A stretch of 56,427 nucleotides of DNA from Armatimonadota bacterium (lineage in GTDB: Bacteria > Armatimonadota > UBA5829 > DTLH01): the NCBI GenBank assembly GCA_016190935.1, contig JACPPP010000133.1, positions 1 to 56,427 of the forward strand. Direction: 5' to 3'. Within the stretch, counting starts at the first letter, position 1; each line of letters opens with the position of its first letter. The position numbers were made by a program, and so were the translations under genes. This document shows positions 4,764-25,392 of the stretch, one piece after another. Below the pieces are notes generated by a model. That model was not told the DNA's origin and made no database searches. It saw nothing but the letters and a program-made list of their open reading frames with translations.

Positions 4764-4845
4764 AGTCTAACCAACATTATTACGAGCAGATCAAGGCCGG
4801 AATAGCGCCCGGCCACTACATATTTTCATGGGGTAACGTTTCCGA

Positions 4846-6785: not shown

Positions 6786-6800
6786 TATGCACTCTCCTGC

Positions 6801-8009: not shown

Positions 8010-9046
8010 GCTGCTGTTCCCTCACGACACGACTCGACGGGTAACTGCGCCCCGGTAAAGAGTATGCTTGCCGCTATCTCATCAATGCTTGCTCCGCGTG
8101 AGTGATCGCTGACACAGCCATTCAGACCGAGCAGCGGTTCGCCGACCAGCATTCCATCACCCATAAGCAGCATTGCCTTGCAGGCGATATTGCCTGACTG
8201 AAGATCCGGGAAAACGAGAACGTTGGCTCTTCCCGCCACTTCCGATGCGCGTTTGATCTTTTTTGCCGCCACAGCCGGAGAAACGGCTGTATCAAATTGA
8301 AACTCACCGTCTATGCAGATATCGGGTCTGCGCTCCTTCACAATATCGAGCGCCCTTACCACTTTGTCCACCATTTCGTTCCGTGCGCTGCCAAGCGTCG
8401 AAAACGACAGCATTGCTACGCGCGGCTTCTCTGGAAGGACCAAACCGGCCTTGTCCGCAGAAAGTATCGCAATATCCGCGAGTTCCTCCGCGGTAGGGTA
8501 AGGAATGATAGCCGGGTCAGCGGCGGCTAACACCAGGTCATCTCCAAGCGGAATATGTGAGAATGTCATCACGACCATGGCGCTCACCTTGCCGATACCG
8601 GGCTGCAGCCCGAGTATCTTGATGGCCGGGCGAGCCACATCCCCGGTCGAATAGTGGACTCCCGAGCATACACCGTGGACTAACCCTCGCCTGTGCAGCA
8701 TGCATGCAAAATAGATTGGTTCATGGATTAACTGCCTTACCTGATCAATTGAGAGGTTGTCTTTGTCGCGAATCGAAGCGTACTCATCACACATTTCCTC
8801 GAAATATCGGAATTCGTCTGGATCGATGATCTCAAGGCCATTTATATTGAGTCCATGTTGGCCTGCCAGGGAGTAGATTTCCGAACGCGAGCCGGTCAAG
8901 ACTACATCCAGCCAACCGTCCTGATGTACCCGGCAGGCGGCTGCAAGCACTCGCTCATCGAACTGCGCATCAGGTACAGCTACCCGAGGATGAGCAGCCC
9001 CAGCTTTGTCGATCAGGTATTCGATGTAAGGATGCACAGCCGACAT
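8006..9046 (-). CDS. pta: Phosphate acetyl/butyryl-transferase (stand-alone PTA_PTB domain), 346 aa
   Basis: Typical PTA_PTB length and C-terminal pattern (NVLVFPDLQSGNIACKAM). Start moved to the ATG at 9046, which has a GAGGA RBS 8 nt upstream. Acyl specificity cannot be read from the sequence. Confidence 0.7.
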   Translation of the reverse strand: MSAVHPYIEYLIDKAGAAHPRVAVPDAQFDERVLAAACRVHQDGWLDVVLTGSRSEIYSLAGQHGLNINGLEIIDPDEFRYFEEMCDEYASIRDKDNLSIDQVRQLIHEPIYFACMLHRRGLVHGVCSGVHYSTGDVARPAIKILGLQPGIGKVSAMVVMTFSHIPLGDDLVLAAADPAIIPYPTAEELADIAILSADKAGLVLPEKPRVAMLSFSTLGSARNEMVDKVVRALDIVKERRPDICIDGEFQFDTAVSPAVAAKKIKRASEVAGRANVLVFPDLQSGNIACKAMLLMGDGMLVGEPLLGLNGCVSDHSRGASIDEIAASILFTGAQLPVESCREGTAA

Positions 9047-9051
9047 CACTA

Positions 9052-10368: not shown

Positions 10369-10406
10369 AAAGCTCTCCTTTCCTTTCCGTAATTGATACC
10401 AAGCAT

Positions 10407-11363
10407 CTATGTCAGAGCGGACCGCGGACGTTTACCCTGGAGGAAATCTCTCGCTGCTTCGGCAACTTTGATTTGCAGCGTCTCGACTGCCTTCTCGGAC
10501 ACGGCCGCGCAGTGGCTCGTCAGAATGATGTTCGATAGTCTGCGCAGAGGGCTGTCCATCGGTAGTGGCTCGACTTTGAACACGTCAAGTCCCGCACCCG
10601 CAAGTTTGCCTGACTCTAACGCGTTGAACAGATCAGCTTCATTGATAATCGGCCCCCGAGAGGTATTCACGACGAGCGCTCCTGGCTTCATCTTACCAAT
10701 TGTCTCACGGTTGATCAGATGGTTGGTCTCCGGCAATAGTGGACAGTGAAGAGAGACTACATCCGAACTGCTCAGCAGTTCTTCGAGGCCAACTTGCTCG
10801 ACGCCGAGTTCAGTAAATACCGACGCAGGAACCAGAGGGTCATACGCGATTACCTTGAACAACAGCGCCTGAGCCTTTCTTGCAAGCAACCTGGCAATGT
10901 TTCCTAAACCCACCAGCCCCAGCGTCATGTCTGATAGTGCCGGAATTGGCCTAAACTGGTTGATGTCCCAACCGCCCCGAAGGATGCTGTTGTGATCGTG
11001 TGGTATCCGTCTTGCCAGGGAGAGGATCATCGCAAGCGCGTGGTTTGAGACTTCTTCGATGCAGAAATCAGGCACGTTGCAAGCCGTGACTCCAAGCTCC
11101 TTGCACGCTTCAAGATCAAGGTTATTCACTCCAATACCATAACGAACAAGACACTTGACCCGTGGCAAAGCATCGAGGACTCTTCTGGTGATGGGCGCCC
11201 ACTGCACTAGAAGAACATCCGCATCGCCGCAGTTCCTAATGACATCGTCCTCGGTCTTACAGTCGGGCTTTGCCTCGCGCAACTCGAAGCCAGCGTCCTT
11301 GAGAATCTTTCGCTCCTTGTCCACGGAAGGCAGATTATAATCGGTAACGACAACATTTCCCAT
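10407..11363 (-). CDS. D-isomer-specific 2-hydroxyacid dehydrogenase family, paralogue of 3783-4763
   Basis: Collinear with 3783-4763 (e.g. VKCLVRYGIGVNNLDLEACKELGVTACNVPDFCIEEVSNHALAMILSLARRIPHDH). Start set at the ATG at 11363 (MGNVVVTDY), not the 40-codon upstream extension in the ORF track. Confidence 0.8.
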   Translation of the reverse strand: MGNVVVTDYNLPSVDKERKILKDAGFELREAKPDCKTEDDVIRNCGDADVLLVQWAPITRRVLDALPRVKCLVRYGIGVNNLDLEACKELGVTACNVPDFCIEEVSNHALAMILSLARRIPHDHNSILRGGWDINQFRPIPALSDMTLGLVGLGNIARLLARKAQALLFKVIAYDPLVPASVFTELGVEQVGLEELLSSSDVVSLHCPLLPETNHLINRETIGKMKPGALVVNTSRGPIINEADLFNALESGKLAGAGLDVFKVEPLPMDSPLRRLSNIILTSHCAAVSEKAVETLQIKVAEAARDFLQGKRPRSALT

Positions 11364-11413
11364 AACAACACCTCGACGAAGATTAGCTAATTTGCAGTAA
11401 TTGCATAGCCTCT

Positions 11414-12469
11414 TCAAACCTCCGACGACAGCAGGATGTGTGCAACTTCCATCACCGCCTCGCGGGGCCCACGGTAAGCCCAAACCTGCGACTCATCGTT
11501 ATACCTCAGCCGCCCGGTTTCCGCTCCTACCGCCGGAGCATGATACTCCAGTTCGCTGAAACTCCACTGGTCAACATTGACATTGCACGCCTGAATGCAA
11601 TATCCGAGATCGTCCGCTTCATCCCAGGGAGCATCGACATAATCACCCGATGGATTGATGTAGAAATTGCGAATCACCAGTGCCCATTCGCCATTTGGGC
11701 ACTCATAGAAATATCCAACCCTGCCGGGAGTATCCGCCGCGCGAAGTCCTATTTTTTGCCCGCCGGCTGCCCGCATTCTATACCTCACGAGGTGATCCCC
11801 AGCGGAAATGTCTTCTGCTTCAACCACGCCGAAGTAGATCTTCGGATCCGTTCTTGAAAATGTGGGAACAAGCAAATCTCCGCCGTTGGGCATCTGAAGC
11901 AGATTCCAGATGCTCACTGAGACGCTTGAGTCACTTGCATTCACGATTTCCAACGCTGTGCGTAGCGAGTATCCGGCATATTGGATACCTGTTGTTCGTA
12001 CTATGGCATGTTCGTATCTGAGTGGATCTGGGGCAGAATAAATCGTTTTGGTCATAGCAAGCTCTATGGAAAATCCGCTCCGCGAAGCTCGTAGAGTTAA
12101 TCGGTTGAGCATTTCTAAAGCTTCGCCCTTTTTCTCGACCTGGTAATCACCAGGGTCAAGCTGCCGTGGCTGCCAGTATTCCTTAACTACAGGAGGAAAG
12201 TTTGGGAAGAAGAAATCAAGTTCCGGCGAAAGCCACGTGCGGTCTCCACCCGAGTTGTGCCAATCCTTGCTTTGGTAGAATGCCCGCGCGGTTTCGACGG
12301 ATCCCAGGGCCGGGTTGGTCCAGAGGAAGTTGGTCTCATCTTTCGGCGCGAATAGCCCGAGAACTCTGCCGCCGTATGGCAGTACGAGAATCTCACTTCC
12401 GTCGGGAGCCTGCAGCACATGCGTAGACTTGCCAACCGCCTTCAAAACCCTAATTAAGTGATTGTTCAC
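11414..12469 (-). CDS. Conserved-looking protein of unknown function, 351 aa; no motif I can assign (possibly a mutarotase-like beta-sandwich)
   Basis: Long ORF embedded in the operon. GTG start at 12469 preceded by AAAGGAGGAG. No signal peptide or TM segment. The string DWHNSGGDRTWLSPE only vaguely recalls aldose-epimerase-like DUFs. Confidence 0.55.
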   Translation of the reverse strand: MNNHLIRVLKAVGKSTHVLQAPDGSEILVLPYGGRVLGLFAPKDETNFLWTNPALGSVETARAFYQSKDWHNSGGDRTWLSPELDFFFPNFPPVVKEYWQPRQLDPGDYQVEKKGEALEMLNRLTLRASRSGFSIELAMTKTIYSAPDPLRYEHAIVRTTGIQYAGYSLRTALEIVNASDSSVSVSIWNLLQMPNGGDLLVPTFSRTDPKIYFGVVEAEDISAGDHLVRYRMRAAGGQKIGLRAADTPGRVGYFYECPNGEWALVIRNFYINPSGDYVDAPWDEADDLGYCIQACNVNVDQWSFSELEYHAPAVGAETGRLRYNDESQVWAYRGPREAVMEVAHILLSSEV

Positions 12470-12509
12470 TCTCTTCTCCTCCTTTTCAAGCTGAAGCGAA
12501 GTTGAAAAT

Positions 12510-13547
12510 CTAGCTCTTAGCCAGCGTGTCTCCGAAAGCCATAACAGCAGCAGCGGTGACAAGGGTGGCAATCGCAAGGTACATCTGCCATCTTGGTGTT
12601 CCGGCCACGCCGCGCCACTCGCCACTCGCAAACCCGACCGCCTGTCCGCCGATTATTTGCGCTGCCTGCTGCATCCCAAATCCAATCGAAGCCCCCAGCG
12701 CGCCCAGCAAAAGCATCCCCCTGCCCATAAGGACAATCGCCAATGTGAATTGAACCCCGATAACCGCCGCCAGCGCGATCTCGTTTTTGCACTCCCAAAG
12801 CACATTCCACGATCTTCGCTTGCTCATCAGATAAGCGGGATATGCAATGTTGATAATGCTGCCTCCAACCAGTCCTGCCGCCCATACGGCGAAGTTCGCG
12901 GGTATCTCCCCGGCACCGTTGATCTTCATTGCCTCAACTATCGGTCCCTGACCGTATACGAACGAGAAGCTGATGCCGGCAGATAGGATTCCGCCGATGG
13001 CGCTCATTATTAGTCCCAGCAGAAACCCTCCAGACTTCTTCTGCACAGACTTGAACACGCGGTCCCGTCCGAATCCAGCCAAGGCGACAAGCACTACTCC
13101 AAGCAGCATAATGCCTACGCCAATTAGCACGATGTGGCCAGCGGGAGATCCAAGACCGGCAGCATCATTGAACAGGCCAGATCCCTTTACCACCATAGGC
13201 AGAGTAACACCGATTGAGACACCCACCGCGGTTAGAATGGCCGTAGTAAGTCCAATTCCGATGCGAGCAATGCACAAACCTCCGAGCACACTCGCCACTC
13301 CCCATCCTATTGCAAACAGGTTCGACTTCAGCAGGTCCATTAACGGAACACTGTGATATGCTGCGATGGCATTCGGGCAGAAGAGCAGCGTGGTCGTCCA
13401 GGGGACTATTATCAGCCCAACAAACATAGCTACGAAGAACCAATGCTCGAACTGAAACCTGCGCATGACTTTCACAGGCCAGTAGACGCTTCCCATGGCC
13501 AGTCCCGCGAATGTCACAACCAAAGCACCCAATAATGTAGGCGTCAT
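12510..13547 (-). CDS. RhaT-type (L-rhamnose/H+ symporter family) sugar permease, about 10 TM, 345 aa
   Basis: Length, hydrophobicity pattern and several local matches to E. coli RhaT as I remember it (central charged loop, GISFSF versus GMSFAM, C-terminal GEW versus KEW). Substrate not inferable. Confidence 0.55.
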   Translation of the reverse strand: MTPTLLGALVVTFAGLAMGSVYWPVKVMRRFQFEHWFFVAMFVGLIIVPWTTTLLFCPNAIAAYHSVPLMDLLKSNLFAIGWGVASVLGGLCIARIGIGLTTAILTAVGVSIGVTLPMVVKGSGLFNDAAGLGSPAGHIVLIGVGIMLLGVVLVALAGFGRDRVFKSVQKKSGGFLLGLIMSAIGGILSAGISFSFVYGQGPIVEAMKINGAGEIPANFAVWAAGLVGGSIINIAYPAYLMSKRRSWNVLWECKNEIALAAVIGVQFTLAIVLMGRGMLLLGALGASIGFGMQQAAQIIGGQAVGFASGEWRGVAGTPRWQMYLAIATLVTAAAVMAFGDTLAKS

Positions 13548-13571
13548 ATCATCAGAATCCTTTCACTGCTT

Positions 13572-14054
13572 TCAAGCTCTGCGTCCCGGACGCTGTACAA
13601 TCTCGACAATTGCTCCGCCTGTACCACGAATGTCGAGGTGTGCACAACCGCCCTGCTCCGTCCGGGCCATGAACAGCACATCAATACCAACCTGTTTGCA
13701 GTGTGCCAGCCTTGAGTCAAGATCTTTTACATCGAACGCTATATGGTGAAGCCCCTCCCCCTTTTCCTCGAGGAAATCGAAGTAATACTGTGGTCCAGTA
13801 ACAGGCTCGATGAACTCTAACTCTACAGGCCCGAGCGAGCAAAACGCCAGTTTCCATTCCGGCACTGGTATTGGCTCTCCACCGCAATACATCTCCGTGA
13901 AACGAATGCTCGGTCGAACGAATGGCCCAAGGCCGAACACAGTTTCGTAGTATTCGATCACGCGCTCGACGCCGTGGACCACCATTGCGATTTGGCTCAC
14001 ATCCGGCAATTCCAGAGCCGATTTGAGATCGTCATTAATACTCAAAGCATTCAT
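13572..14054 (-). CDS. VOC-family (glyoxalase/bleomycin-resistance/dioxygenase fold; epimerase-like) protein
   Basis: VSQIAMVVHGVERVIEYYETVFGLGPF ... GEGLHHIAFDVKDLD pattern. ATG at 14054 has GGAGG 10 nt upstream. An alternative GTG at 14063 overlaps the ADH stop. Confidence 0.7.
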   Translation of the reverse strand: MNALSINDDLKSALELPDVSQIAMVVHGVERVIEYYETVFGLGPFVRPSIRFTEMYCGGEPIPVPEWKLAFCSLGPVELEFIEPVTGPQYYFDFLEEKGEGLHHIAFDVKDLDSRLAHCKQVGIDVLFMARTEQGGCAHLDIRGTGGAIVEIVQRPGRRA

Positions 14055-14059
14055 AGGTG

Positions 14060-15100
14060 TCACGCCTCCATTTCGATCATAATCTTGATCTTGGTATCAT
14101 TGTTAGTCTTCATTTCCTTCAGAGCCTCGGCGGCCTGTTCCAACGTGCACCGGTGCGTAATAATCGAAGACATGTCAAGCATCCCACTTTCCATAAGTCT
14201 GAGGACAGGCTTGAACATCCCCAGGCTGCCAGGCACCGGTTTGATCGTCACATCTCCAAACACAAGACTGTCGATGTTGAACTCTGCAAGCGGCTTATCA
14301 TAGAATGCCACCACCGACATCACTCCTCCGGGACGAGTGAGACCTATCGATTCTTTGAACAATTCTGTTGAACCCGATGCCTCAATTACACGATCGACAC
14401 CATGCGCCCCTACCAAAGCTCTTACGGTCTCGCCCAGTGGCTCTCTTGTCACATTGATGGCATTGTCGATGCCCATCGTCAATGACAGATCAAGCTTATA
14501 GTCTTTGCGACCGGTAATGATCACTTTGCTCGCTCCGTGAAGCTTGGCGAGTTTCGCTGCCGCAATCCCGATTGGCCCCGTACCTTGGACCAGCACCGTG
14601 TCACCGATTTGCATATCGGTGAGCATCAACGACAACAGTCCTGTGGCAACAGGTTCCACAAGCGCGCCGTTGTCGAAGCTGACACCGTCGGGAAGGCGAA
14701 ACATGTGCCGAGCGGGCATCAGGATATATTCAGCCCAGCCGCCGTCCCAGGTAAGCACTGTTCCTACGGCGCGCAACTCCTTGCAGTGGTTATACTGACC
14801 CATAAGGCACTCATAGCACATGCCGCACGAAACCGCCGTGTCACCGACTACTCTGTCACCCGGCTGTAAACCCTTCACGTCCGACCCCACTGATTCGACT
14901 ATCCCAGACCACTCGTGCCCTGGTGTCATCGGAAACCTGACCATACCGATAAATGACGCTTCTCCGCTGTAGATTGAGTAGTCAGTGCCGCATATTCCGG
15001 CACGCGCGACACGGCAGACAACATCCCCCGGTCTGGGTTCAGGAGTCGGAACATCCATCAGCCTAACATCTTTTGGAGCGTAGAATCTCACTGCACGCAT
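14060..15100 (-). CDS. Zn-dependent medium-chain alcohol/polyol dehydrogenase (sorbitol/threonine-DH-like)
   Basis: GICGTDYSIYSGE, GHEWSG, the structural-Zn Cys cluster (CGMCYECLMGQYNHC) and the GTGPIG Rossmann motif. Perfect AAGGAGG RBS. Confidence 0.85.
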   Translation of the reverse strand: MRAVRFYAPKDVRLMDVPTPEPRPGDVVCRVARAGICGTDYSIYSGEASFIGMVRFPMTPGHEWSGIVESVGSDVKGLQPGDRVVGDTAVSCGMCYECLMGQYNHCKELRAVGTVLTWDGGWAEYILMPARHMFRLPDGVSFDNGALVEPVATGLLSLMLTDMQIGDTVLVQGTGPIGIAAAKLAKLHGASKVIITGRKDYKLDLSLTMGIDNAINVTREPLGETVRALVGAHGVDRVIEASGSTELFKESIGLTRPGGVMSVVAFYDKPLAEFNIDSLVFGDVTIKPVPGSLGMFKPVLRLMESGMLDMSSIITHRCTLEQAAEALKEMKTNNDTKIKIMIEMEA

Positions 15101-16376
15101 TTTCCCCTCCTTTTATCTCGCTTGCCTCTCCGCACCAGTTCCGAACGAACTCAAAGAGCACGTGGGCCGCCAATCCTATATCGTTAACTCTAACTTGCTC
15201 ATTCTTTGAATGAGCGAGCGCCAACTCGCCACAGCCGAAGACCACTACGGGCATCCCCAGATGGCTGGCATAGAACCATGAGTCCGTACCGCAAGTCAGG
15301 ACAGCAGACTCTGGTGTCACCCCTGCCCGCTCGCAGGCAGACAACATAGACACGACGAGCGGATGGTCCACCGGCGTAACAGCGGAATCGTGTGCGAGTG
15401 TAAATTCGATATCCACGTGCCTCATAATGTCGTCGCCACAGCCGGCTTGCAGCGACTCAATCATTTCCCTTTTAATGTCCTCCTTCGTCTTGTTTGGCAG
15501 GAACCCGATGACACCTTCAAGCACCGCTCTATCGGGCACCATCGCCGGCCAATCCCCCGCCGATAGCCGACCTAGGGTAAGCGGCATCGGGTTCTCGAAG
15601 CCATCATACGGCGGTGTTCCACGAGACACAGCCAGAAGCTCTGTGTGATAACTTCTCAACACCTCCATGACTCTCACCGCCATATCTAACGCACTCTGGG
15701 TTTTGGCTGCAGATCCACTGTGCGCGGCCGTACCGTGGCAAGTAATCCGGAACCACAGTGTGCCTCGGCACGCTGTCACAACCTTGAGGTTTGTCGGCTC
15801 CATAACAATCGCGCCATCCGCGGGAGACGATGCGCGTACCATACTGAGCGAGCCATTTCCACCATTCTCCTCCTCCACAACTAGGTGAACAATGAGATCT
15901 CCATCCAGCTTTGTGCTCGTTGCCTTGATCGCAGAAAGTAGAACATATATTACAGCCACCTGGCCTTTATCATCGCACGCTCCCCTGCCGTAGACAATCC
16001 CGTCTACCGACTGGGGATCGTACGAGTTCTCTTGTCCTTTGCTTAGCGGAACCGTATCAAGATGAGCATTTAGGATTAGCGACTTGCCCGGTCCGCAGCC
16101 TCGGAGCCTTAAACGAAGATTATGTCTTCCTTTGTATCTAATATTGGGAATCGGGCTTGCATAGTCCTTTTCATCGCGAATCGAGTCGTCAAGTGGAACC
16201 AGTTCCACATCATCGGCCAGATTCGCGAATGCTCTAGCGCAATAGTCAACCACACGGTCTTCGGAGCCCGAGATTGACGATAAAGAGATCAGGTCGCACA
16301 AGAACGTTTCCGCATCCGGCAACAAACCGTCTATTATTGACTTGGCCAAATCATCAGCCGTCTTCAACACTACCAT
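15063..16376 (-). CDS. M20-family metallopeptidase / N-acyl-amino-compound deacylase (ArgE/DapE-like)
   Basis: NAHLDTVP, GRGACDDKG and VVEEENGGNGS metal-ligand motifs. 38-nt overlap with the ADH gene. Confidence 0.8.
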   Translation of the reverse strand: MVVLKTADDLAKSIIDGLLPDAETFLCDLISLSSISGSEDRVVDYCARAFANLADDVELVPLDDSIRDEKDYASPIPNIRYKGRHNLRLRLRGCGPGKSLILNAHLDTVPLSKGQENSYDPQSVDGIVYGRGACDDKGQVAVIYVLLSAIKATSTKLDGDLIVHLVVEEENGGNGSLSMVRASSPADGAIVMEPTNLKVVTACRGTLWFRITCHGTAAHSGSAAKTQSALDMAVRVMEVLRSYHTELLAVSRGTPPYDGFENPMPLTLGRLSAGDWPAMVPDRAVLEGVIGFLPNKTKEDIKREMIESLQAGCGDDIMRHVDIEFTLAHDSAVTPVDHPLVVSMLSACERAGVTPESAVLTCGTDSWFYASHLGMPVVVFGCGELALAHSKNEQVRVNDIGLAAHVLFEFVRNWCGEASEIKGGENACSEILRSKRC

Positions 16377-16377
16377 C

Positions 16378-17706
16378 CTACAGCGACAACAGCACGCCTT
16401 CCATTATGTCGAGACTCTCTTCGGCTTCCTCTTCATTGATAACAAGCGGCGGTCCCACACGGATTACATTGCCGAATATGCCGACTCTACCAACCAGCAA
16501 CCCGTTATTGGCACACCTGACGATTATCTCCTTGGCAAGTTCCGGCGTGGGCTCCTTTGTATTCTTGTCGGCAACGATCTCGAGTCCCATCACCAGTCCC
16601 TTTCCCCTCACATCGCCGACGCACCTTGATTGCTCGGCTATCCAAGTAAGGCATTCCTTCATCATGTTACCTATCTTGCGGGCATTGTCGGGTAATCTCT
16701 CAGACTTCATGACCTCCAACACCGCAATGACGGCGGCACTCGATAGCGGGTTTCCCCCTGCGGTGCTACTCATCTCTCCTGGTCCTAATGCACCGACTAC
16801 GCTGCTTTTCATTAGGACAGCGGAAGTGGGAACTCCGCTTCCAATGCCCTTGCCGAGACAAACAATGTCAGGCGTCACATTCTCCCATTCCATCGCCCAC
16901 ATCTTGCCGGTCCTTCCATATGATGACTGGACCTCGTCTAATGAGAACATTATGCCGTGTGCTCTGGCCCACCTCTCCAACTCGGTCAGCCATCCGTCTG
17001 GTGGAAATATAAATCCGGCAGTCCCAAGATACGGTTCAGCAAGCACACCGGCAAGACTGCCACACGAGTTTGCACGGACCACTTCGTCAAGGAACTCAAG
17101 ACACATTAATCCGCATTTCTCGGGAGTGGACTTGAACGCACATCTGTAACAATAAGGATATGGAGCATGGATCGCCCCCGCTATTGGTGGACCATATCCC
17201 TTTTTCGGCATAGACATCCCACCCACTCCCGCTGCCCCAGGAGTGCGGCCGTGAAAGGCCCCGTGGAATCCGACTATTTCAAAACACCCTGTATAGCGCT
17301 TCATCAGGCGAATTGCCTGCTCGGTCGCCTCGCTGCCCGTTGATAGAAAGAAGCACCTGTCCAGGTGCTCGGGAGTCGTTTGAACCAAAGCTTCGGCGGC
17401 TGCAACGCGGTACTCGTTTGCATATTCGTAGCAGTTCAATATCTTCCCGGCCGCTTCACGCACAGCTTCCACCAATCGAGGATGGCAGTGGCCGACATTC
17501 GCAACAAGCACACCGCTAGTCCAATCGATGAACACGTTGCCGTCAACATCATGCACAATCACTCCCTGGGCACTCTGCCAGGCCACCGGAGCCTGAAAAC
17601 CAAAAGTCTGAGCTTCCGCCTCAGACCAACGTTCTAGCAGTGCTTTCGAATTGGGGCCTGGCAAGGGTGTATTGACTGAAGTGATCCGATCCCTAGATTG
17701 AAGCAT
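16378..17706 (-). CDS. Class-III (omega-) aminotransferase, PLP-dependent
   Basis: GABA/ornithine-AT-like pattern (FIDWTSGVLVANVGHCHPR, FLSTGSEATEQAIR, LDEVQSSYGRTGKMWAMEW). Start chosen at the ATG at 17706 (AAAGGAG 11 nt upstream) rather than the GTG at 17757. Confidence 0.8.
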   Translation of the reverse strand: MLQSRDRITSVNTPLPGPNSKALLERWSEAEAQTFGFQAPVAWQSAQGVIVHDVDGNVFIDWTSGVLVANVGHCHPRLVEAVREAAGKILNCYEYANEYRVAAAEALVQTTPEHLDRCFFLSTGSEATEQAIRLMKRYTGCFEIVGFHGAFHGRTPGAAGVGGMSMPKKGYGPPIAGAIHAPYPYCYRCAFKSTPEKCGLMCLEFLDEVVRANSCGSLAGVLAEPYLGTAGFIFPPDGWLTELERWARAHGIMFSLDEVQSSYGRTGKMWAMEWENVTPDIVCLGKGIGSGVPTSAVLMKSSVVGALGPGEMSSTAGGNPLSSAAVIAVLEVMKSERLPDNARKIGNMMKECLTWIAEQSRCVGDVRGKGLVMGLEIVADKNTKEPTPELAKEIIVRCANNGLLVGRVGIFGNVIRVGPPLVINEEEAEESLDIMEGVLLSL

Positions 17707-18904
17707 CGATACTGCTGCTCCTTTCTGCATTATAGATATGAACCTCTGCGCCTCCACGTTCCGCGGACAGGTATGCCGAGTAGATCGTTGCCGTTACGTC
17801 CACAGCTATGTCCAGGTCCGATTGTGGCTTGCTCCGCTTGTATATACACTCAAGGAAATCTTGCATTTCCGGCTGGTAGCCGATAGTCCAGTATTCATCC
17901 GGCGCCACATTTGACCAGCCTTCCTGAGTGCTGGTCATCTCGAGGAGGTATATGTCCTTGAATCCATCGTCGCCTGGATTGTAGGTATCAAGCAAATTTG
18001 TCGGATTAATACGGCATCTGCTTCGATGGTTATTGGCGAAAACTTCTATGTAATCGTAAGTCCCACCGAGCACAGTTGCTCCCGTCACCACATCGCCGAC
18101 CGTACCATCATCGAACGTCACATGCATCCATCCGTAGTCTTCGACATCGAAGTAATCGCAGCGCAAGAAGCCTTTGTCTCGGTATTCTGGGATCCCGGTC
18201 AACTGGTGAGTTCGCGCCGACACTGTGAGTGGGCATATAGGCCCTGTTCCATTCGCCTGCCCCTCCGCCCTTTTCAGATACAGAAGAACGCCCAAAGGAT
18301 GCGAGCCGGTACTGATCAGCGATCCACCACAAGCGTATTTCCAGAAGCTGGAATACGCGGCAAGATTGCCCTTGTGTGACTCCTCTCCGATCATACGCAG
18401 AATCTGCGCGCCACTCCTGTCTATGAGATCACGCTCTCTCTGAACCGGCGGCGCGTATATGCAGTTTTCGGCGTAGCAGAACACCGACTTGGAGGCTGTA
18501 ACTGCCCGTCGTATTTCCTCAAGGCCTTGCAGCACCTCATCGAGCATCGGCTGTTTCGGAGCGACATTGCCTCTAAACGATTCGGCATCGTCCATAGTCG
18601 GCGCGTAGCCCATCAGTGGTTTCTCGCAGATGATGTCCTTTCCTGCTCCAGCCGCTTGCAGAATGACTTCCTTGTGCGCGTATGGAGGAGTACAGACGTC
18701 GACCACATCCACATGCTCCAACATCTCCTCAATAGTCCTAAACGCCGAAACGCCTCTTTGCTCCGCGAAGGCTCTACTTCTTTCGGGGACGACATCAAGA
18801 ACGCCGACGACTTCAGATCTCACGCCGTAAACGCGTGCTACGCACTCGTGATGATACCCGGCGATGTATCCGGCCCCGGCAACTCCTATCCTGATGGTCT
18901 TCAC
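17693..18904 (-). CDS. Gfo/Idh/MocA-family NAD(P) oxidoreductase, first gene of the operon
   Basis: IRIGVAGAGYIAGYHH N-terminal Rossmann motif and the EKP motif (ICEKPL). Start set at the GTG at 18904 (GGAG 9 nt upstream). The ORF-track start at 18931 would lie inside the operator. Confidence 0.8.
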   Translation of the reverse strand: MKTIRIGVAGAGYIAGYHHECVARVYGVRSEVVGVLDVVPERSRAFAEQRGVSAFRTIEEMLEHVDVVDVCTPPYAHKEVILQAAGAGKDIICEKPLMGYAPTMDDAESFRGNVAPKQPMLDEVLQGLEEIRRAVTASKSVFCYAENCIYAPPVQRERDLIDRSGAQILRMIGEESHKGNLAAYSSFWKYACGGSLISTGSHPLGVLLYLKRAEGQANGTGPICPLTVSARTHQLTGIPEYRDKGFLRCDYFDVEDYGWMHVTFDDGTVGDVVTGATVLGGTYDYIEVFANNHRSRCRINPTNLLDTYNPGDDGFKDIYLLEMTSTQEGWSNVAPDEYWTIGYQPEMQDFLECIYKRSKPQSDLDIAVDVTATIYSAYLSAERGGAEVHIYNAERSSSIDASI

Positions 18905-18926
18905 TTGACTTTTCTCCAAGATTTGT

Positions 18927-18945
18927 GGCACAATCGATTGAGCAT
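18927..18945 (-). promoter_or_regulatory. Candidate LacI-family operator O1 (ATGCTCAATCGATTGTGCC on the minus strand; core palindrome CAATCGATTG)
   Basis: 19/19 identical to 23425-23443. It lies 7 nt downstream of the -10 hexamer of the operon promoter, and a LacI-family gene is divergent. Confidence 0.65.
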
Positions 18946-19056: not shown

Positions 19057-19142
19057 ACTTGTGCAAGCGCAAAATTGATGATAATACCAGTATATGTTTA
19101 ACTGTGGCGCTATCCATTCCATTCTCAAATCAAAGGCCGAAC

Positions 19143-20162
19143 ATGGGAATTGTCACTCTTGATGATATTGCTGGCGCCCTGGGTATCTCACGGGCCCAAG
19201 CCTGCCGCGCACTGAGCGGCAAGGGCCGAGTCAGCCCAGAGACTAGAGCCAGAGCCGTGAAACTGGCCTCAAAGATGGGTTACCGTCCAAATCATAATGC
19301 AAGGAGTCTGATTCTCGGCAAGACTAACCTTGTAGGTGTCATAGGCGGTCCGGTAATCATATCTGCGTTCGAGTTGGTCGTCGATCCTATCGAACAGGCT
19401 CTTGGCGAGGCTGGCTATTCTATGCTCTTCTGTCGATCTACAGGAGAACCGGACAGTGAGCACATCTATATCGAGCAAATTATACCATTGCGTGTAGACG
19501 GCCTCATAGTCCATCCCGGTCCCTACTCGATGGACTGCACCCCCTATGAGCAGGCAATCGCAAACGGAATTAAGCTGGTAATATTCGGCGCGTACATCAA
19601 AGGTCTTGATGTACCGCAGATGGCTGTTGATGAGTATCGTCCCTCGAAACTGGCTACGGAGCACCTGCTTGCTTTGGGGCACCGACGAATCGTATATATG
19701 GCACTCCCTGAGACATCCCCAGCCGGAATTGACCGCATGCGGGGATTCCGTGACGCTATGAGCGCGGCAGGGGTCCCCTTGACGGAATCCTCCGCAGCGG
19801 AAACGGGCTTCGGCAGTAAGGCGGGAGCCGAGATGATGACTCGATTGCTCAAAAGCAAGAGCCGGCCGACAGCAGTCATAGCACGTCACGACACAGTTGC
19901 TCTCGGCGCGATGGAAGCGGTCCTCGCCGCTGGGCTATCAGTCCCCAAGGACATATCCATAGTAGGCCACGGAGACATCATACGCACTACTGCTCTCAAG
20001 GCGCCACTGACCTCCATCCGATACCCATGGACCGAAATGGCCGAGTTTGCGGTGAACACACTTCTAGACATGTTTGGCGACCGCCCGGTGGATATGGGCC
20101 TGAAGGTCTGGGACTGCGAACTCATCGTGAGGCAATCCACGGCCCCACCAAGACCCCATTAA
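19143..20162 (+). CDS. LacI/GalR-family transcriptional repressor, 339 aa
   Basis: N-terminal HTH VTLDDIAGALGISRAQACRALSGKGRVSPETRARAVKLASKMGYRPNHNARSL plus a periplasmic-binding-protein-like core. Start set at the ATG at 19143. Confidence 0.88.
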   Translation: MGIVTLDDIAGALGISRAQACRALSGKGRVSPETRARAVKLASKMGYRPNHNARSLILGKTNLVGVIGGPVIISAFELVVDPIEQALGEAGYSMLFCRSTGEPDSEHIYIEQIIPLRVDGLIVHPGPYSMDCTPYEQAIANGIKLVIFGAYIKGLDVPQMAVDEYRPSKLATEHLLALGHRRIVYMALPETSPAGIDRMRGFRDAMSAAGVPLTESSAAETGFGSKAGAEMMTRLLKSKSRPTAVIARHDTVALGAMEAVLAAGLSVPKDISIVGHGDIIRTTALKAPLTSIRYPWTEMAEFAVNTLLDMFGDRPVDMGLKVWDCELIVRQSTAPPRPH

Positions 20163-20256: not shown

Positions 20257-21021
20257 TCAATATATCGTTGCTCCCCCGTCTACAACCAATGTGTGACCAT
20301 TGATGAACCCACTTGCGTCGGAAGCCAGGAACAACGCGGCGGCGGCGATTTCCTCTGGAGTGCCAACCCTGCCCATCGGTATCGACTCCAGTATTTGCCT
20401 GCTGTAGTCAGGATTGGACATGATCTTCGCCAGAGCGGGAGTGTTGACCTGTCCAGGCGCAATCACATTCACACGAATTCCGTACTTTGCCCATTCCACC
20501 GCTAGTGTCTTAGTGAAGCCGATAATTCCGGCCTTCGCCGCGGCATGGTGAGCCGTGCCTCTGGGCAGACCGATAAGCGCCGCGATAGACGCAATGCTTA
20601 TGATGCATCCTGACCGCTGCTCCATCATTATCTTTCCGATCTCTCGCGAACACAGAAAGCTGCCGCGTAAACTGACGGCTACGCACCTGTCCCACTGCTC
20701 ATCCGTCATCTTCTCAACGTGGACAAGCTCAGCCGAAGCTGCGTTGTTGAGCAGGATATCCACCCGCCCGAAAGTTTCTTTCGCTTTCCCGCACATTTCC
20801 GCCACCATACGGGTGTCGGTTACGTCGCACTGCATATACAAAGCCCTCTGTCCGATAGACTCAATCCGTGAGATCAACTCAGGGCACTTTTCGTCGATAA
20901 TGTCAAGCGCCAGGATGTCGGCGCCATGTTGCGCCATCATCAGGCCGGTGCTGGCTCCTATGGGACTCAACCCACCGGTGATCACAGCCACTTTTCCATT
21001 AAGACCTAAAATATCGTTCAT
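20257..21021 (-). CDS. Short-chain dehydrogenase/reductase (FabG-like SDR)
   Basis: VAVITGGLSPIG cofactor motif, NNAA, and the catalytic S...AAHHAAAKAG region (the usual YxxxK Tyr position reads A-H-H, which is atypical). ATGA overlap with the lipoyl-domain gene. Confidence 0.8.
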   Translation of the reverse strand: MNDILGLNGKVAVITGGLSPIGASTGLMMAQHGADILALDIIDEKCPELISRIESIGQRALYMQCDVTDTRMVAEMCGKAKETFGRVDILLNNAASAELVHVEKMTDEQWDRCVAVSLRGSFLCSREIGKIMMEQRSGCIISIASIAALIGLPRGTAHHAAAKAGIIGFTKTLAVEWAKYGIRVNVIAPGQVNTPALAKIMSNPDYSRQILESIPMGRVGTPEEIAAAALFLASDASGFINGHTLVVDGGATIY

Positions 21022-21275
21022 TCCGACCCATCCTTTTCTATCCGACCGAGCACTGCGCCTATCGCGGCCTCTTGATCAACTTGAACCAAAACATCAGCAA
21101 GGATACCCGAAGCGGGAGACTCAACCTCTAAATTCGCTTTATCGGAGAGAATCTCCACGACAGGCTCTCCGCGGCTCACTGTATCGCCCACACACTTGAG
21201 CCACTTAGTAACGGTTACATCTTCAACAGTAAGTCCCTGCTGAGGAACAACAATCTCCACATACTCGCTTGGCAT
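21018..21275 (-). CDS. Stand-alone lipoyl (biotinyl/lipoyl-attachment) domain protein, 85 aa
   Basis: VTKWLKCVGDTVSRGEPVVEILSDKANLEVESPASGIL contains the lipoyl-lysine context (x-D-K-A). There is no linker, subunit-binding domain or acyltransferase catalytic domain. GGGAG RBS. Confidence 0.8.
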   Translation of the reverse strand: MPSEYVEIVVPQQGLTVEDVTVTKWLKCVGDTVSRGEPVVEILSDKANLEVESPASGILADVLVQVDQEAAIGAVLGRIEKDGSE

Positions 21276-21353
21276 ATTCGTCTACTCCCAAATATAATGA
21301 TCTAATAAATCCGAAATTCGCTGTCAAGCATCTGCTACTCGAGAGAATGCTTC

Positions 21354-22358
21354 CTAAACCAACGCTCGTACATCGGCGGACCGTTGCGCTTCCATCAATC
21401 TACGAACCGAGGTCAATATTCTTTCCTCGCTTGGTATCATAGCTGCCTCAAGCCCCGGAGCATAAGGATTCGGTGTGTCAAGAGATGCCACCCTGATGAT
21501 GGGAGCCCGCAGATAGTCGAACGCGTGCTGGCACACCAGCGCAGCGATCTCCGCTCCAGCTCCGCAGGTCAGATGGGCTTCTTCAACAATCGTCAAGCGG
21601 CCTGTTTTGGCAACAGATCTCAAAATCGTATCTATGTCCAGCGGATATAGGGTTCTTGGATCGATAAGCTCGACGTCGACATCCATCTCCGGACCCTCCG
21701 CTACGTTGAGCGCCTTTCCAACCATACTGCTTATCGCGACTAAAGTGACATCACTGCCCTCGCGGACCACTTTGGCTTCGCCAATGGGAGTGATGTACTC
21801 GCTATCCGGCACTTCATCCTTCTTGGGATACAGGAATTTGTGTTCAAAGAAGATGACGGGATTCGGATCGCGGATAGACGCCTTAATCAGCCCTTTGGCG
21901 TCGGCTGGATTGCTCGGGGCCACAACCTTGAACCCCGGACAGTGCATGAATAGGGAATACGGGCAAGCTGAATGGTGCGCGCCTGAGGTTCTTCCCCCCA
22001 TCTGTGCCCTGACTACCATCGGCACCTGTACGCCGCCGTTAGAAACGTGATGCAGTTTTCCCGCCTGATGACAAAGAGTCCCCATTGCCTCATAAAGCAT
22101 GTCGGCGAACATGAGATCGACAATCGGCTTCAGCCCGGATGCCGCGGCTCCAATTGCCATACCGGTGAAGCCGTTCTCGCATATGGGAACGTCAATGACT
22201 CTGCTCGAACCGAACTCCTGCCATAGGTTCTTAGTGTGTGCGTAGCTTCCTCCCCGCTCTCCGATCCCCTCGCCCAGTGTAATCACCGTAGGATCCAAAC
22301 GCATCTCTTCCGCGATGCCGTCACGGATGGCATTCATATAGGATATCCTGGTAGACAT
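21354..22358 (-). CDS. 2-oxoacid/acetoin dehydrogenase E1 component, beta subunit
   Basis: Transketolase-like Pyr and C-terminal domains (VIDVPICENGFTGMAIGAAASGLKPIV). Its start abuts the E1-alpha stop. Confidence 0.85.
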   Translation of the reverse strand: MSTRISYMNAIRDGIAEEMRLDPTVITLGEGIGERGGSYAHTKNLWQEFGSSRVIDVPICENGFTGMAIGAAASGLKPIVDLMFADMLYEAMGTLCHQAGKLHHVSNGGVQVPMVVRAQMGGRTSGAHHSACPYSLFMHCPGFKVVAPSNPADAKGLIKASIRDPNPVIFFEHKFLYPKKDEVPDSEYITPIGEAKVVREGSDVTLVAISSMVGKALNVAEGPEMDVDVELIDPRTLYPLDIDTILRSVAKTGRLTIVEEAHLTCGAGAEIAALVCQHAFDYLRAPIIRVASLDTPNPYAPGLEAAMIPSEERILTSVRRLMEAQRSADVRALV

Positions 22359-23354
22359 TTAACTAGCCTCCGCAAAGATGTGATCTCCGACAGTCTCAGT
22401 ATCCGGATGTGGGCTCTGCCTGGAGAACTCCACAGCTCGGTCGATTTCCTCACCAATCTTCGCCTCGATTCCATTTAGCGTGTCTTCGTCGATCTCAAAC
22501 TCACTAATAAGCTTCAGCCTATACGTGGATATCGGGCAGCGTTTCTTCCACTTCTCGATCTCTTCGAGCGTTCTATACGTGCCGGCGATCTGGTCGCCTT
22601 CATAGTGTCCACAGGTGCGATATGTCTTCGCCTCAATGAGAGTCGGACCTTCGCCCGCTCTAGCCCTATAGATCGCATTACCCGCAACTTCGTACACTGC
22701 CAGGACGTCGTTGCCATCCACGACTACGCCGGGCATTCGAAAAGCATCGGACCTGCTGGCAATATCCGGATTGCTGGCTACATCCACGAGTCGTGTCGCG
22801 GTGGCATACAGATTGTTCTCACACACAAAAACGACCGGCAACTTATACACAGCCGCCAGGTTCAACGACTCGTAGCACAAACCGTGATTGCTTGCGCCAT
22901 CGCCATAGAATGCTACCGAGACATTCGGCTTGCCTAACGTTTTCATGCTGAGTGCGGAACCGACGGCCAACGGTATGCCGCCTCCCACAACACCATTCGT
23001 TCCAAGAAGACCGTGCTGCATAGCATAGACGTGCATGCTTCCGCCCCGTCCGCCACTGTAGCCATCACTTCGACCGTATAGCTCAGCCATTGTGCGTTCC
23101 GTACTGCAGCCCTTCGCCAAAGCGTGCCCGTGGCCACGATGCGTGCTTGTGATAATGTCCTCATCCGTCAGGTGCGCACAAACACCGGCTGCGACCGCCT
23201 CCTCGCCCAAATACAGATGAACAAATCCTGGCAACTCTCCAGCACGGTAGACAAGCGCAACACGCTCCTCAAATCTCCTGACGCGAACCATCATCTCGTA
23301 AAGCGCAAGTAGTTGTGTAGTCGTCATTTGCTGTTTAGATGGAATTTCTTGCAT
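22359..23354 (-). CDS. 2-oxoacid/acetoin dehydrogenase E1 component, alpha subunit (ThDP-binding)
   Basis: ThDP motif region (AFYGDGASNHGLCYESLNLAAVYKLPVVFVCENN). Start set at the ATG at 23354; the ORF track uses the TTG one codon upstream. Confidence 0.85.
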   Translation of the reverse strand: MQEIPSKQQMTTTQLLALYEMMVRVRRFEERVALVYRAGELPGFVHLYLGEEAVAAGVCAHLTDEDIITSTHRGHGHALAKGCSTERTMAELYGRSDGYSGGRGGSMHVYAMQHGLLGTNGVVGGGIPLAVGSALSMKTLGKPNVSVAFYGDGASNHGLCYESLNLAAVYKLPVVFVCENNLYATATRLVDVASNPDIASRSDAFRMPGVVVDGNDVLAVYEVAGNAIYRARAGEGPTLIEAKTYRTCGHYEGDQIAGTYRTLEEIEKWKKRCPISTYRLKLISEFEIDEDTLNGIEAKIGEEIDRAVEFSRQSPHPDTETVGDHIFAEAS

Positions 23355-23424: not shown

Positions 23425-23443
23425 GGCACAATCGATTGAGCAT
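23425..23443 (-). promoter_or_regulatory. Candidate LacI-family operator O2, identical to O1
   Basis: ggcacaatcgattgagcat is identical over 19 nt to 18927-18945. It lies 8 nt downstream of the -10 hexamer of the E1 operon promoter. Confidence 0.65.
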
Positions 23444-23451
23444 CCTTCTGC

Positions 23452-23480
23452 AATTTACCACATATACGGATGCCTGTCAA
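23452..23480 (-). promoter_or_regulatory. sigma70-type promoter of the E1/lipoyl/SDR operon: TTGACA-17 nt-TAAATT with TGn extended -10
   Basis: Minus strand reads gggTTGACAggcatccgtatatgtggTAAATTgcagaagg. Confidence 0.6.
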
Positions 23481-23496
23481 CCCTTTCTCTTTTCAA
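23480..23496. repeat. 17-bp direct repeat (target-site duplication, left copy): accctttctcttttcaa
   Basis: Identical 17-mer at 25376-25392. The two copies bracket the IS exactly. Confidence 0.8.
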
Positions 23497-23679
23497 TGTG
23501 GTAGCATAGCGATTATGTCCCCTATTAATAGCAGAGCGAAAGTGTACCCACTGGGTCGCACCTGTTCACTTTGAGTGAACGTCCCCGGGCCGCCGATTTT
23601 TTGTTGATTCGGCGGGCGGCTGGGGCTAAATAGAGGGGGCATATTGTGCAGCAGCCAATTGCAAAGCGATAATGTCCCC

Positions 23680-24900
23680 ATGCAAATGGAGGGCATCAAG
23701 ATAGCACACAAGGACATTGAGAGGTTGCACATACTGAAGATGGTGCTGGAGTGTAAGATGACGCTGGTGGAGGCGGCGGTCGTTCTACAGGTTAGCTACC
23801 GGCACGCCGAGCGGCTGAAGAAGGCCGCAGCAGAGGGAATCAAAGGTATAGTGCATGGCAACCGGGGAAGAGTGCCGACCAACAAGACACAGGAGGCGCT
23901 ACGGGCCAGAGTGGTTGCACTGGCGGAAGGTAAATATAGCAACTTCAACGACACACTTTGCGCAGATGCTTATCGAGCGGGAGGGGATAAAGCTGTCGCG
24001 GGAGACGGTGCGCAGGATACGCAGGCAAGAGGGGATCAAGCCCAAGCGGAAGCGGAGGGTAAGAAAGCATCATGCGAGGCGGCCGAGGAAGCCGGCTGAG
24101 GGTATGATGATGCTCTTTCGATGGCAGTCCTCACCGCTGGTTTGGCCATGAACGTGCCCCCTGTTGCTTAATGGCAGCGATTGACGACGCGACAGGTCGT
24201 GCGCTTGCTCTGCGGTTTGTGGATGCTGAGTCTAGCTGCGCGTATCTTGATCTGCTTACGGGAGTGGTAAGAGGCTATGGGATTCCAGCAAGCGTGTATC
24301 AGAACAGGCACTCGGCGCTAAAGAGGAACGACAGCTACTGGAGTATTGAAGAACAACTTGCGGGCCGCCAGGACTCAACGCAGGTAGGGACGGCGCTTGA
24401 GGCGCTTGGGATCCAGGCGATATTCGCCCTTAGCCCACAAGCAAAGGGAAGGGTGGAGAAGCTCTTTGAGACGCTTCAAGACCGGCTGGTGCCGATGCTT
24501 GAACTTAAGGGGATAAAGGATATTATCTCTTGGTTATGAAGCAACAGTGGCAAACGACAATGCAGTGAGGCTGGGAGGGATAGTGATAGACATACCAGCG
24601 GGTCCGGGAGGACGCAGTTATGCGGGGGTTAGAGCAGATGTGCGGCAGATGCTGGATGGTAGTTGGAGGGTCTACTACCAGGACAGGCTAATTGCGACTG
24701 CTCCCAGGACACCGGTTGCCGAACCGATCCGCACCAGGAGAAGAAGAAAGGGACTAAGGGCAGCCTCAGAGGATCAGTGGGTGTATATGGCCTCTGCAGA
24801 GCCGACGCAGTGCCGGGCAGACTCCGCTGCTGCCACAGCGGGAACCACAGTGCGTCGAGCCGGTCCAGGCCGGTCAATTGGAGCCACACGAATAGCATGA
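23680..24900 (+). pseudogene. ISNCY-family (rve/integrase-core) transposase, at least 3 frameshifts plus an internal deletion
   Basis: Homology runs through three frames. Frame 1: HTH part ..LKMVLECKMTLVEAAVVLQVSYRHAERLKK..GIVHGNRGRVPTNK... Frame 2: ..IEREGIKLSRETVRRIRRQEGIKPKRKRR... Frame 0: DGSPHRWFGHERAPCCLMAAIDDATGRALALRFVDAESS...SPQAKGRVEKLFETLQDRLV. A C-terminal piece follows (NDNAVRLGGIVIDIP...DGSWRVYYQDRLI). Confidence 0.7.
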
Positions 24901-25026
24901 AAGGAGACACCTGTGCCGACACCACGAAAGTATGAAAGCAATGCCCACAGGCAAAAGGCTTATCGAGAAAGACGTGCCGCGCAAGTGCAAGCACAACTGG
25001 CATCTTAAGGAATCCCACCTCGGCCG

Positions 25027-25233
25027 GTGATCCCGTCTATACCGGGACATCGCAGATGGAAAGCTATGATAAACCAGGCACGCTTTCTTCTGCAGAATGT
25101 CGTGGACGAGATGCGAGCCTATCAAGAGGAAAGGTCTGATGAGTGGCAGGACTCTGAACAGTCAGTTGAGTTTACTGCAACTATGGAATCCATAGAGAAC
25201 GCAACCGATGCTTTGGCAGATATCCCATACTGA
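25027..25233 (+). CDS. Small hypothetical ORF inside the right end of the IS (passenger or remnant)
   Basis: 68 codons followed by a perfect 12-bp-stem hairpin (25278-25305). The same frame is open upstream (..PRKYESNAHRQKAYRERRAAQVQAQLAS) but is interrupted by a TAA, so it may itself be a pseudogene. Confidence 0.3.
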   Translation: MIPSIPGHRRWKAMINQARFLLQNVVDEMRAYQEERSDEWQDSEQSVEFTATMESIENATDALADIPY

Positions 25234-25375
25234 CTGGTCAATCGAGAGCCGCCCCGGATGGTTGTCCGGAATTAGCTGCCTGAAGCGTATCGTTACGCTT
25301 CAGGCCCAGGAATAACAATCCACAAGGGGACATTTTCCCTTCGCAGTTAAGGGGACATATTGCCTTTGCTTAAAC

Positions 25376-25392
25376 ACCCTTTCTCTTTTCAA
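25376..25392. repeat. 17-bp direct repeat (target-site duplication, right copy)
   Basis: Identical to 23480-23496. Confidence 0.8.

Follow-up and report, generated by a model that had tools for sequence, protein, structure and literature searches.

Lipoate-dependent dehydrogenases are, in textbook biochemistry, complexes of three enzymes, E1, E2, and E3, with the E2 forming the core on which they assemble. Among the closest described systems are those for acetoin. The order of their genes is E1a-E1b-E2-E3-acetoin reductase on an Acinetobacter plasmid and lpdA-E1a-E1b-E2-butanediol dehydrogenase in Enterococcus faecium, and acoABCSL is the acetoin dehydrogenase operon of P. carbinolicus (PMC3543383). 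The locus described here is collinear with the Acinetobacter operon, with the E2 reduced to its first domain and the E3 gone. It lies on contig JACPPP010000133.1 of an Armatimonadota bacterium, a 56,427-nucleotide stretch (the window) that constitutes an entire contig, C67, of the 3.84-Mb assembly. The operon encodes a thiamin diphosphate (ThDP)-dependent E1, an 85-residue protein that consists of a lipoyl domain, and a short-chain dehydrogenase/reductase (SDR). The 85-residue protein and its relatives are referred to as free-standing lipoyl carrier proteins (LCPs). The layout of this module is conserved, and its missing steps are most likely borrowed from a single housekeeping complex encoded elsewhere in the genome.

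All four genes are on the minus strand. E1 alpha, the ThDP-binding subunit (22359–23354; Pfam E1_dh, PF00676, 1.6e-81), begins at an ATG, with an in-frame TTG at 23357, 3 bases 5′ of it, and its stop is abutted by E1 beta (21354–22358; Transket_pyr, PF02779, 7.4e-37, and Transketolase_C, PF02780, 8.2e-35). Next, after a 78-nt gap that includes a GGGAG ribosome-binding site, comes the LCP gene (21018–21275; Biotin_lipoyl, PF00364, 1.7e-16, residues 7–79), the TGA of which is overlapped by the ATG of the SDR gene (20257–21021, 254 aa; adh_short_C2, 7.8e-65) in the tetranucleotide ATGA. A promoter-like site, also on the minus strand, is found at 23452–23480 (TTGACA, 17 nt, TAAATT, with a TG before the –10 element; 10/12 matches in a consensus scan). 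Open reading frames and matches to Pfam and NCBIfam bear out the gene set and the ATGA overlap reported in a first-pass annotation of this DNA; read from the sequence, E1 alpha, E1 beta, the LCP, and the SDR are a single intact operon with a promoter-like site and an operator.

The LCP is, by all comparisons made, a conserved gene and not debris, an E2 reduced to its lipoyl domain. It ends 6 residues past that domain and has neither a 2-oxoacid_dh catalytic domain nor a peripheral-subunit-binding domain. Lys46 (in SDKA), the putative site of lipoate attachment, is invariant in 16 aligned lipoyl domains, and the nearest database relatives of the LCP are themselves 79–90 aa in length (43–63% identical). 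When the LCP alignment was used as a profile against 1.84 billion representatives, multi-lipoyl E2s dominated the matches, and this search is uninformative on free carriers. The first-pass annotation had raised the prospect of a truncated or frameshifted E2 behind the 85-residue reading frame. A tblastn search of the window with five E2 proteins (E ≤ 10) gave the lipoyl domain as its sole true match and no E2 remnant in 20257–21020, so the 85-residue frame does not represent the start of an E2 broken by a frameshift. A weak E2-like match at 901–1167 proved to be an IS630-type transposase. Elsewhere in the genome, a second free lipoyl-type reading frame (79 aa, SIDKA) is located at a contig end (C91; L008:2509–2748, minus strand), where it adjoins a hexapeptide acetyltransferase, serine-acetyltransferase-like, and CysS.

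Profile and structure matches assign the window E1 to the pyruvate/acetoin-dehydrogenase superfamily, as a ThDP enzyme of the heterotetramer type. E1 alpha matches human pyruvate dehydrogenase (PDH) E1 alpha at 5.6e-64 and reaches 351.1 bits against the PDH equivalog TIGR03182, under the cut-off of 393.85; E1 beta reaches 336 bits against NF006667, over the cut-off of 321. The ThDP motif GDG...NN is retained in E1 alpha as YGDGASN...CENN, and the histidine of TCGHYEGD aligns with human alpha-His263 (alignment to 2OZL_A), presumably the counterpart of alpha-His271 of the G. stearothermophilus enzyme. E1 beta retains, in GAHHSAC, the equivalent of G. stearothermophilus beta-His128 (alignment to 1W85_B). 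Both G. stearothermophilus residues, alpha-His271 and beta-His128, have roles in the reductive acylation of lipoate (PMC2663715). As the ThDP motif, the alpha-His, and the beta-His are all kept, the E1 looks competent for lipoate chemistry. The beta-His128 equivalent is also present in genuine aco enzymes; it was considered as a discriminator between acyloin and 2-oxoacid substrates and rejected, being conserved in all compared enzymes. In E1 trees, the aco clade (Acinetobacter, Bacillus, and E. faecium) excludes the window subunits, with support of 100/99 for E1 beta and 98 for E1 alpha; nodes deeper than this clade form an unresolved star. As the clade excludes both subunits and the regulator of the operon is LacI-type, membership of the window E1 in the acetoin family is not supported by these comparisons.

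Genome-wide profile searches (PF00198 and PF02852) and tblastn against the window found no E2 catalytic domain and no E3 on C67, in agreement with the first-pass annotation, which had reported neither an acyltransferase domain nor a dihydrolipoamide dehydrogenase in the 56 kb. A dedicated E2 or E3 close to the operon, which the annotation had considered, is likewise missing from the profile matches on the contig; as the window is the whole contig, this statement extends only to the contig ends, at least 20 kb away in one direction and 33 kb in the other. The sole 2-oxoacid_dh catalytic domain in the genome is on C276, and Pyr_redox_dim matches are on C214 and C305. This single E2 comprises a lipoyl domain, two E3-binding domains, and the catalytic domain, and it is encoded without an adjacent E1 or E3. 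Its gene is split over the ends of C190 (1–230) and C276 (1–1239), which share an identical 39-residue overlap, and the break probably falls at a repeated lipoyl or linker region. The Lpd-like genes were scored against the lipoamide_DH model (225 bits over 160 residues for the C214 fragment and 345 bits for the C305 protein). LipB is encoded in the genome, over its cut-off, and an AceE-type E1 was not found in the genome.

At least five further E1 alpha/beta pairs are present (C5, C95, C132, C237, and C331; L009–L013), with no lipoyl domain or E2 nearby, giving a tally of at least six pairs versus one E2; the assembly is 92% complete, and these gene counts are lower bounds. The pair on C5 is surrounded by a split transketolase, a cupin, a NAGLU-like enzyme, and an aldo-keto reductase fused to a 4Fe-4S domain, that on C95 by a RuBisCO-like protein and a SIS protein, and that on C132 by an isocitrate/isopropylmalate-dehydrogenase-like gene. 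The order is PfkB kinase, E1ab, class II aldolase on C237 and E1ab, class II aldolase, HAD on C331. In eleven relatives, the E2 is likewise without an alpha/beta-type E1 directly upstream, and one E2 core for several scattered E1 pairs appears, from these gene orders, to be the norm in the lineage.

A search of other genomes for the E1a-E1b-lipoyl-SDR arrangement, suggested by the first-pass annotation, found it in a metagenome-assembled genome (MAG) of the Eubacteriales (L042). Here, E1a, E1b, an 80-aa lipoyl protein, and an SDR with the same HH pair are followed by a Zn-dependent alcohol dehydrogenase (Zn-ADH), an M20 deacylase, and a TRAP transporter. Identity to the window proteins is 62% for E1b, 57% for E1a, 50% for the SDR, and 43% for the LCP, and the best matches of the M20 and Zn-ADH proteins in the Armatimonadota genome are members of the 14-gene operon of the window described below. 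As trees pair the window with this MAG (100/99 for E1b in a careful tree; SH-aLRT 99 for E1a in a quick tree) and E1b identity to the window reaches only 52% across 40 genomes from the family, order, and class of this bacterium, the E1 module looks horizontally acquired. The locus with this closest E1b (G021:C48) was considered as the same module and rejected, having a GntR gene instead of an LCP and a Tyr-bearing SDR.

A second form of the module, in the order E1b, E1a, a 94–96 aa lipoyl protein, and SDR, is found in relatives of the same order (L035/G034, L038/G026, and L041/G024), and its lipoyl proteins are 55–86% identical to one another. It is located between RhaT-DUF6786 and an aldehyde dehydrogenase in L038 and after HMGL-Pta-Ack-FAH, on one strand, in L041; these neighbor modules (RhaT/DUF6786 and HMGL-Pta-Ack) sit in the co-regulated operon in the window. 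The lipoyl proteins of this second form carry a conserved acidic C-terminal tail (...D.D..LAEY/F-K/E), which the window LCP does not have. Two apparent free lipoyl reading frames in other relatives were false: that in G035 is a frameshifted E2, and that in G030 is directly followed by an E2 catalytic domain.

Comparable E1ab-LCP clusters are found in cultured bacteria. Eight Thermus thermophilus plasmid records match the search, and the two inspected in detail show E1a, E1b, an 82-aa protein annotated as “hypothetical” or “lipoyl domain-containing,” and a TRAP transporter, with no adjacent E2. The megaplasmid clusters (L207/L210) continue with MFS and then DeoR, BtpA/SgcQ, an FGGY kinase, and an SDR, and a second small lipoyl reading frame is present on the plasmid (frame of 86 aa, 111189–111395). 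In Shinella plasmid pcSHIWSC3 (L208) and Rhodococcus erythropolis pRLCBG43 (L209), E1ab and an 80-aa lipoyl protein are accompanied by a separate, catalytic-only E2 (225 aa, 10920–11597, and 238 aa, 7279–7995, respectively). As LCP and catalytic-only E2 are encoded separately in these two plasmids, it follows from the gene structures that lipoyl arm and E2 core can be separate polypeptides. The Shinella cluster also includes its own lipA, a GlpD-like dehydrogenase, a class II aldolase, and sugar kinases. Annotations of the two split-E2 clusters are generic only, and a literature search found no study on E2-less E1-LCP modules or on the Shinella, Rhodococcus, and Thermus clusters. On plasmids of Leisingera (L211) and Streptomyces (L212), genes annotated “pdhA” are in strings of acsA, E1, E2, and acyl carrier protein (ACP), with E1 alpha and beta fused in Leisingera, which suggests E1/E2 systems that load a carrier protein and not coenzyme A (CoA); the Armatimonadota E1 pair on C132 groups with these E1s in both trees.

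The operator of the E1 operon, a 19-bp LacI-type palindrome, GGCACAATCGATTGAGCAT, is located between the promoter-like site and E1 alpha (23425–23443), and an identical 19-mer is found at the head of a 14-gene catabolic operon (18927–18945); neither copy is assigned a strand. The gene for a LacI-family repressor (19059–20162, plus strand; LacI helix-turn-helix (HTH) and Peripla_BP_3) lies between the two operator-bearing promoters and is divergently transcribed; its product is the probable, predicted regulator of both operons. The 14-mer core of the operator occurs in the 3.84-Mb assembly only at the two window sites; a candidate third core copy at C6:21184 was rejected, as it falls within a coding sequence and one such match is no more than chance would give. 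Because the 19-mer is identical at both operons and its core is found nowhere else in the assembly, these sites indicate that the two operons are very probably one regulon. The 14-gene operon (3783–18931, minus strand; Pfam and NCBIfam) encodes a Gfo/Idh/MocA protein, a class-III aminotransferase, an M20 deacylase, a Zn-ADH, a VOC protein, a RhaT-like permease, DUF6786, two D-2-hydroxyacid dehydrogenases, an HMGL-like protein, Pta, acetate kinase (Ack), DmpF, and DmpG, and these companions are sugar or amino-sugar genes. Transposase genes flank the 20-kb two-operon regulon (window 211–1278, 2711–3382, and 23480–25392). One flank holds a DDE_3 gene of IS630-like type together with a DDE_5 fragment; on the opposite flank, a remnant of an HTH/transposase gene lies a short way upstream of the E1 promoter. 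The bracketing transposases, together with a closest relative of the E1 module in a Eubacteriales MAG, suggest that the regulon may be a mobile catabolic island.

The Pta of this operon matches a Pta of solved structure at 212 bits and retains the equivalents of Ser309, Arg310, Arg87, and Arg133 of the M. thermophila enzyme (alignment to 1QZT), of which we take the first two to be catalytic and the two arginines, Arg87 and Arg133, to bind CoA. A loss of CoA binding was considered and rejected, as the CoA-binding arginines are kept. An ordinary source of acyl-CoA is encoded in the same operon, the acylating aldehyde dehydrogenase DmpF.

We favor, at a probability of about one-half, a pathway in which the E1 loads the free LCP, the housekeeping E2 and E3 finish the reaction in trans, and the acyl-CoA passes through Pta and Ack to yield ATP. 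The first-pass annotation had listed three fates for the acyl-lipoyl group without choosing among them. Its shuttle from the LCP to a housekeeping E2/E3 is the best fit to the single unlinked E2, the Lpd-like genes, LipB, and the split E2 in cultured bacteria. Its direct formation of acyl-phosphate from acyl-lipoyl by Pta finds no support, as that enzyme is canonical in score and in all four residues. In the favored pathway, the SDR and the co-regulated dehydrogenases would first supply a 2-oxo acid, with pyruvate as the simplest candidate, or an alpha-hydroxyketone; the former would come from the two 2-hydroxyacid dehydrogenases and the aldolases and the latter from the SDR. The E1 would cleave this substrate and reductively acylate the lipoyl-LCP; free lipoyl domains are good E1 substrates. 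The acyl group would then be transferred to CoA in trans on the catalytic core of the single, separately encoded E2, Lpd would re-oxidize the dihydrolipoyl-LCP, and the acyl-CoA would be converted, with formation of ATP, by the two enzymes encoded in the co-regulated operon, Pta and acetate kinase. We infer the chemical steps, the substrate, and the trans interaction from what is observed: the genes are intact, the module and its catalytic residues are conserved, the operator is shared, and E2, E3, and LipB are encoded on other contigs of the genome.

Several observations weigh against this pathway. The assembly-wide search for the operator core found no copy at the housekeeping E2 and E3 genes and thus no tie to the E1 operon. 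The LCP has no peripheral-subunit-binding domain, and transfer would therefore proceed by diffusion, which is kinetically poor. E1 alpha falls under the PDH equivalog cut-off and outside the genuine acetoin clade, and the gene counts are minima, as given above. The tight LCP-SDR junctions in both module types (a 4-nt overlap in L041 and gaps of 1–11 nt in L042, L038, and L035) and the absence of the catalytic Tyr from both SDR types also hint at a role of the SDR that may be tied to the carrier and has no place in the favored pathway.

The SDR is unusual in its active site. The first-pass annotation had pointed out that the canonical Tyr context seemed to be lacking, which is correct, and the alignment shows that the change is conserved across a subfamily. 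The motif region reads GLPRGTAHHAAAKAG, and alignment to canonical SDRs places His159 at the position of the catalytic Tyr and Ser117 at that of the tetrad Asn, so that the tetrad is Ser117-Ser145-His159-Lys163 versus the classical Asn-Ser-Tyr-Lys. In a 15-member subfamily alignment, His158, His159, Lys163, Ser145, and Ser117 are invariant and GLPRGT(A/S)HH..AK is fixed. The subfamily is rare (~17 proteins at least 50% identical among 5.8 billion); scans of genomes and metagenome contigs with the SDR alignment returned one true member, that of L042, and otherwise the generic EWAKYG pattern, and an ESM Atlas search returned generic SDR clusters only. In the second module type, the SDRs carry Phe in place of the catalytic Tyr.

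The remainder of the window SDR is conventional. The dinucleotide-binding motif TGxxxGxG is intact, as TGGLSPIG, and an Asp at the end of strand beta-2 suggests, by established SDR rules, that the enzyme may prefer NAD. The predicted model (predicted local distance difference test score, pLDDT, 90.7) has a classical SDR fold, with query-normalized template modeling (TM) scores of 0.88–0.92 to FabG of Listeria monocytogenes and of 0.88–0.93 over structures of FabG and glucose dehydrogenase together. Distant SDRs with extra “RG” residues (37–41% identical to the window SDR) have either Tyr or His at the catalytic position and are found near E1ab-E2 clusters in MAGs of Anaerolineae, Chloroflexia, and Actinomycetota; in two Chloroflexi MAGs, the His-type SDR lies 8 kb from an E1ab with a full-length E2 (477 and 484 aa). 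The proposal that Tyr-less SDRs occur only where the E2 has been cut down was rejected on the strength of these two MAGs. As related SDRs interchange Tyr and His and His forms are found near full-length E2, the His at the Tyr position is, on comparative grounds, most likely a functional replacement.

A self-contained, noncanonical route, in which the acyl-dihydrolipoyl-LCP is handled by a partner other than E2 and E3, either the SDR acting on an ACP-like LCP or Pta phosphorolyzing the acyl-lipoyl group directly, seems to us unlikely, although it accounts for a number of features. In both module types, the LCP gene abuts or overlaps the SDR gene, neither SDR type has the catalytic Tyr (His here, Phe in the relatives), Pta and Ack are part of the gene string of E1b-E1a-LCP-SDR in L041, and E2 and E3 lie outside the regulon. 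The candidate partners, however, look ordinary: Pta keeps its CoA-binding residues, the SDR combines an intact dinucleotide-binding motif with a classical fold, and the “GRG” SDRs swap Tyr and His, with His forms near full-length E2 in Chloroflexi, such that the His looks like a functional replacement. We know of no SDR that oxidizes a dithiol. Furthermore, an E2 is present in every checked well-assembled genome that carries such a module. The more specific proposal, in which a route independent of E2 and E3 uses the LCP as its true carrier of acyl groups and electrons and the translationally coupled, Tyr-less SDR either works on the intermediate bound to lipoyl or docks the carrier in place of an E2 core, is a long shot; if true, the route would be a lipoate-based analogue of ACP-dependent pathways that feeds substrate-level phosphorylation.

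A lipoate-independent E1, a ThDP enzyme of lyase, carboligase, or transketolase-like type with a ketone derived from sugar as its substrate, is distinctly unlikely; the LCP would then be a dispensable leftover or only a regulatory acceptor, and the other E1ab pairs of the genome may act in this lipoate-independent way. E1ab homologues with lipoate-independent action in sugar C-branching are known, and the five or more other E1ab pairs of the genome do stand without a lipoyl domain beside sugar kinases, class II aldolases, a split transketolase, and a RuBisCO-like protein. The LCP, however, is conserved across several phyla as a short, undamaged gene in which the lipoyl-lysine does not vary, and the 55–86% mutual identity of the second-form LCPs, the retention of both histidines of lipoyl acylation, and the presence of LipB likewise speak against disuse of lipoate. 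Least probable of all is a plain acetoin/2,3-butanediol system (AcoAB and butanediol dehydrogenase) minus AcoC and AcoL, which would fit the collinearity with the Acinetobacter and Enterococcus aco operons, the 47.6–50.5% identity of E1 alpha to Acinetobacter and Bacillus aco-type subunits, the AcoC model as top NCBIfam match of the LCP, and the 197 bits of the SDR to BudC but not the well-supported aco clade that leaves out both E1 subunits, a BudC cut-off of 270 bits and a missing Tyr in the SDR, a LacI-type regulator in place of AcoR, or companion genes of sugar and amino-sugar type.

An E1 accompanied by the swinging-arm domain alone, in sugar-catabolic regulons, is apparently found in many bacteria. 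If the LCP is served in trans, one E2/E3 core would be a hub for several pathway-specific E1 enzymes, and the annotation and modeling of such genomes would change; if it is not, a new use of lipoate awaits discovery. The conserved Tyr-to-His SDR subfamily is by itself a small, testable enzymological oddity.

In comparison with known systems, the best solved-structure matches to the E1 subunits are human PDHA1/PDHB and G. stearothermophilus E1p (PDB 1NI4 and 1W85; 220 and 246 bits), which share with the window E1 the ThDP motif and the equivalents of the alpha-His and beta-His128. The window E1 differs from these heterotetrameric PDH E1s in an E1 alpha below the PDH equivalog cut-off and in having no cognate E2 that bears an E1-binding domain. 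The acetoin system is similar in its heterotetramer-type ThDP E1, with E1 alpha ~48–50% identical, and in a product that feeds Pta and Ack in anaerobes. In contrast to that system, the window operon has no E2 catalytic domain, peripheral-subunit-binding domain, or E3, its SDR has His for Tyr, and it is under a LacI-type operator in a sugar/amino-sugar regulon.

That lipoyl domains can serve partners encoded elsewhere is known from the sharing of lipoyl domains between OdhA and AceF in corynebacteria, where the lipoyl domain is the missing part, the reverse of the case in the window. Loading of lipoate by E1-type enzymes from donors other than 2-oxoacids, such as ketoses, is known from QncN/QncL, which load a C2 unit in tetrahydroisoquinoline biosynthesis; unlike the window LCP, QncL has kept an acyltransferase domain, and the unit is passed to an ACP. 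The Shinella, Rhodococcus, and Thermus clusters resemble the window most in their free 80–82 aa lipoyl protein directly after an Aco-like E1ab in a catabolic cluster, which in Shinella and Thermus is of sugar type. None of the three has a His-type SDR within the operon, and the Shinella and Rhodococcus clusters differ further in their separate, catalytic-only E2, with lipA in addition in Shinella. The Thermus cluster, like the window, has no adjacent E2 catalytic gene, and as Thermus thermophilus is cultured and genetically tractable, the question of how a free lipoyl arm is served is directly testable there.

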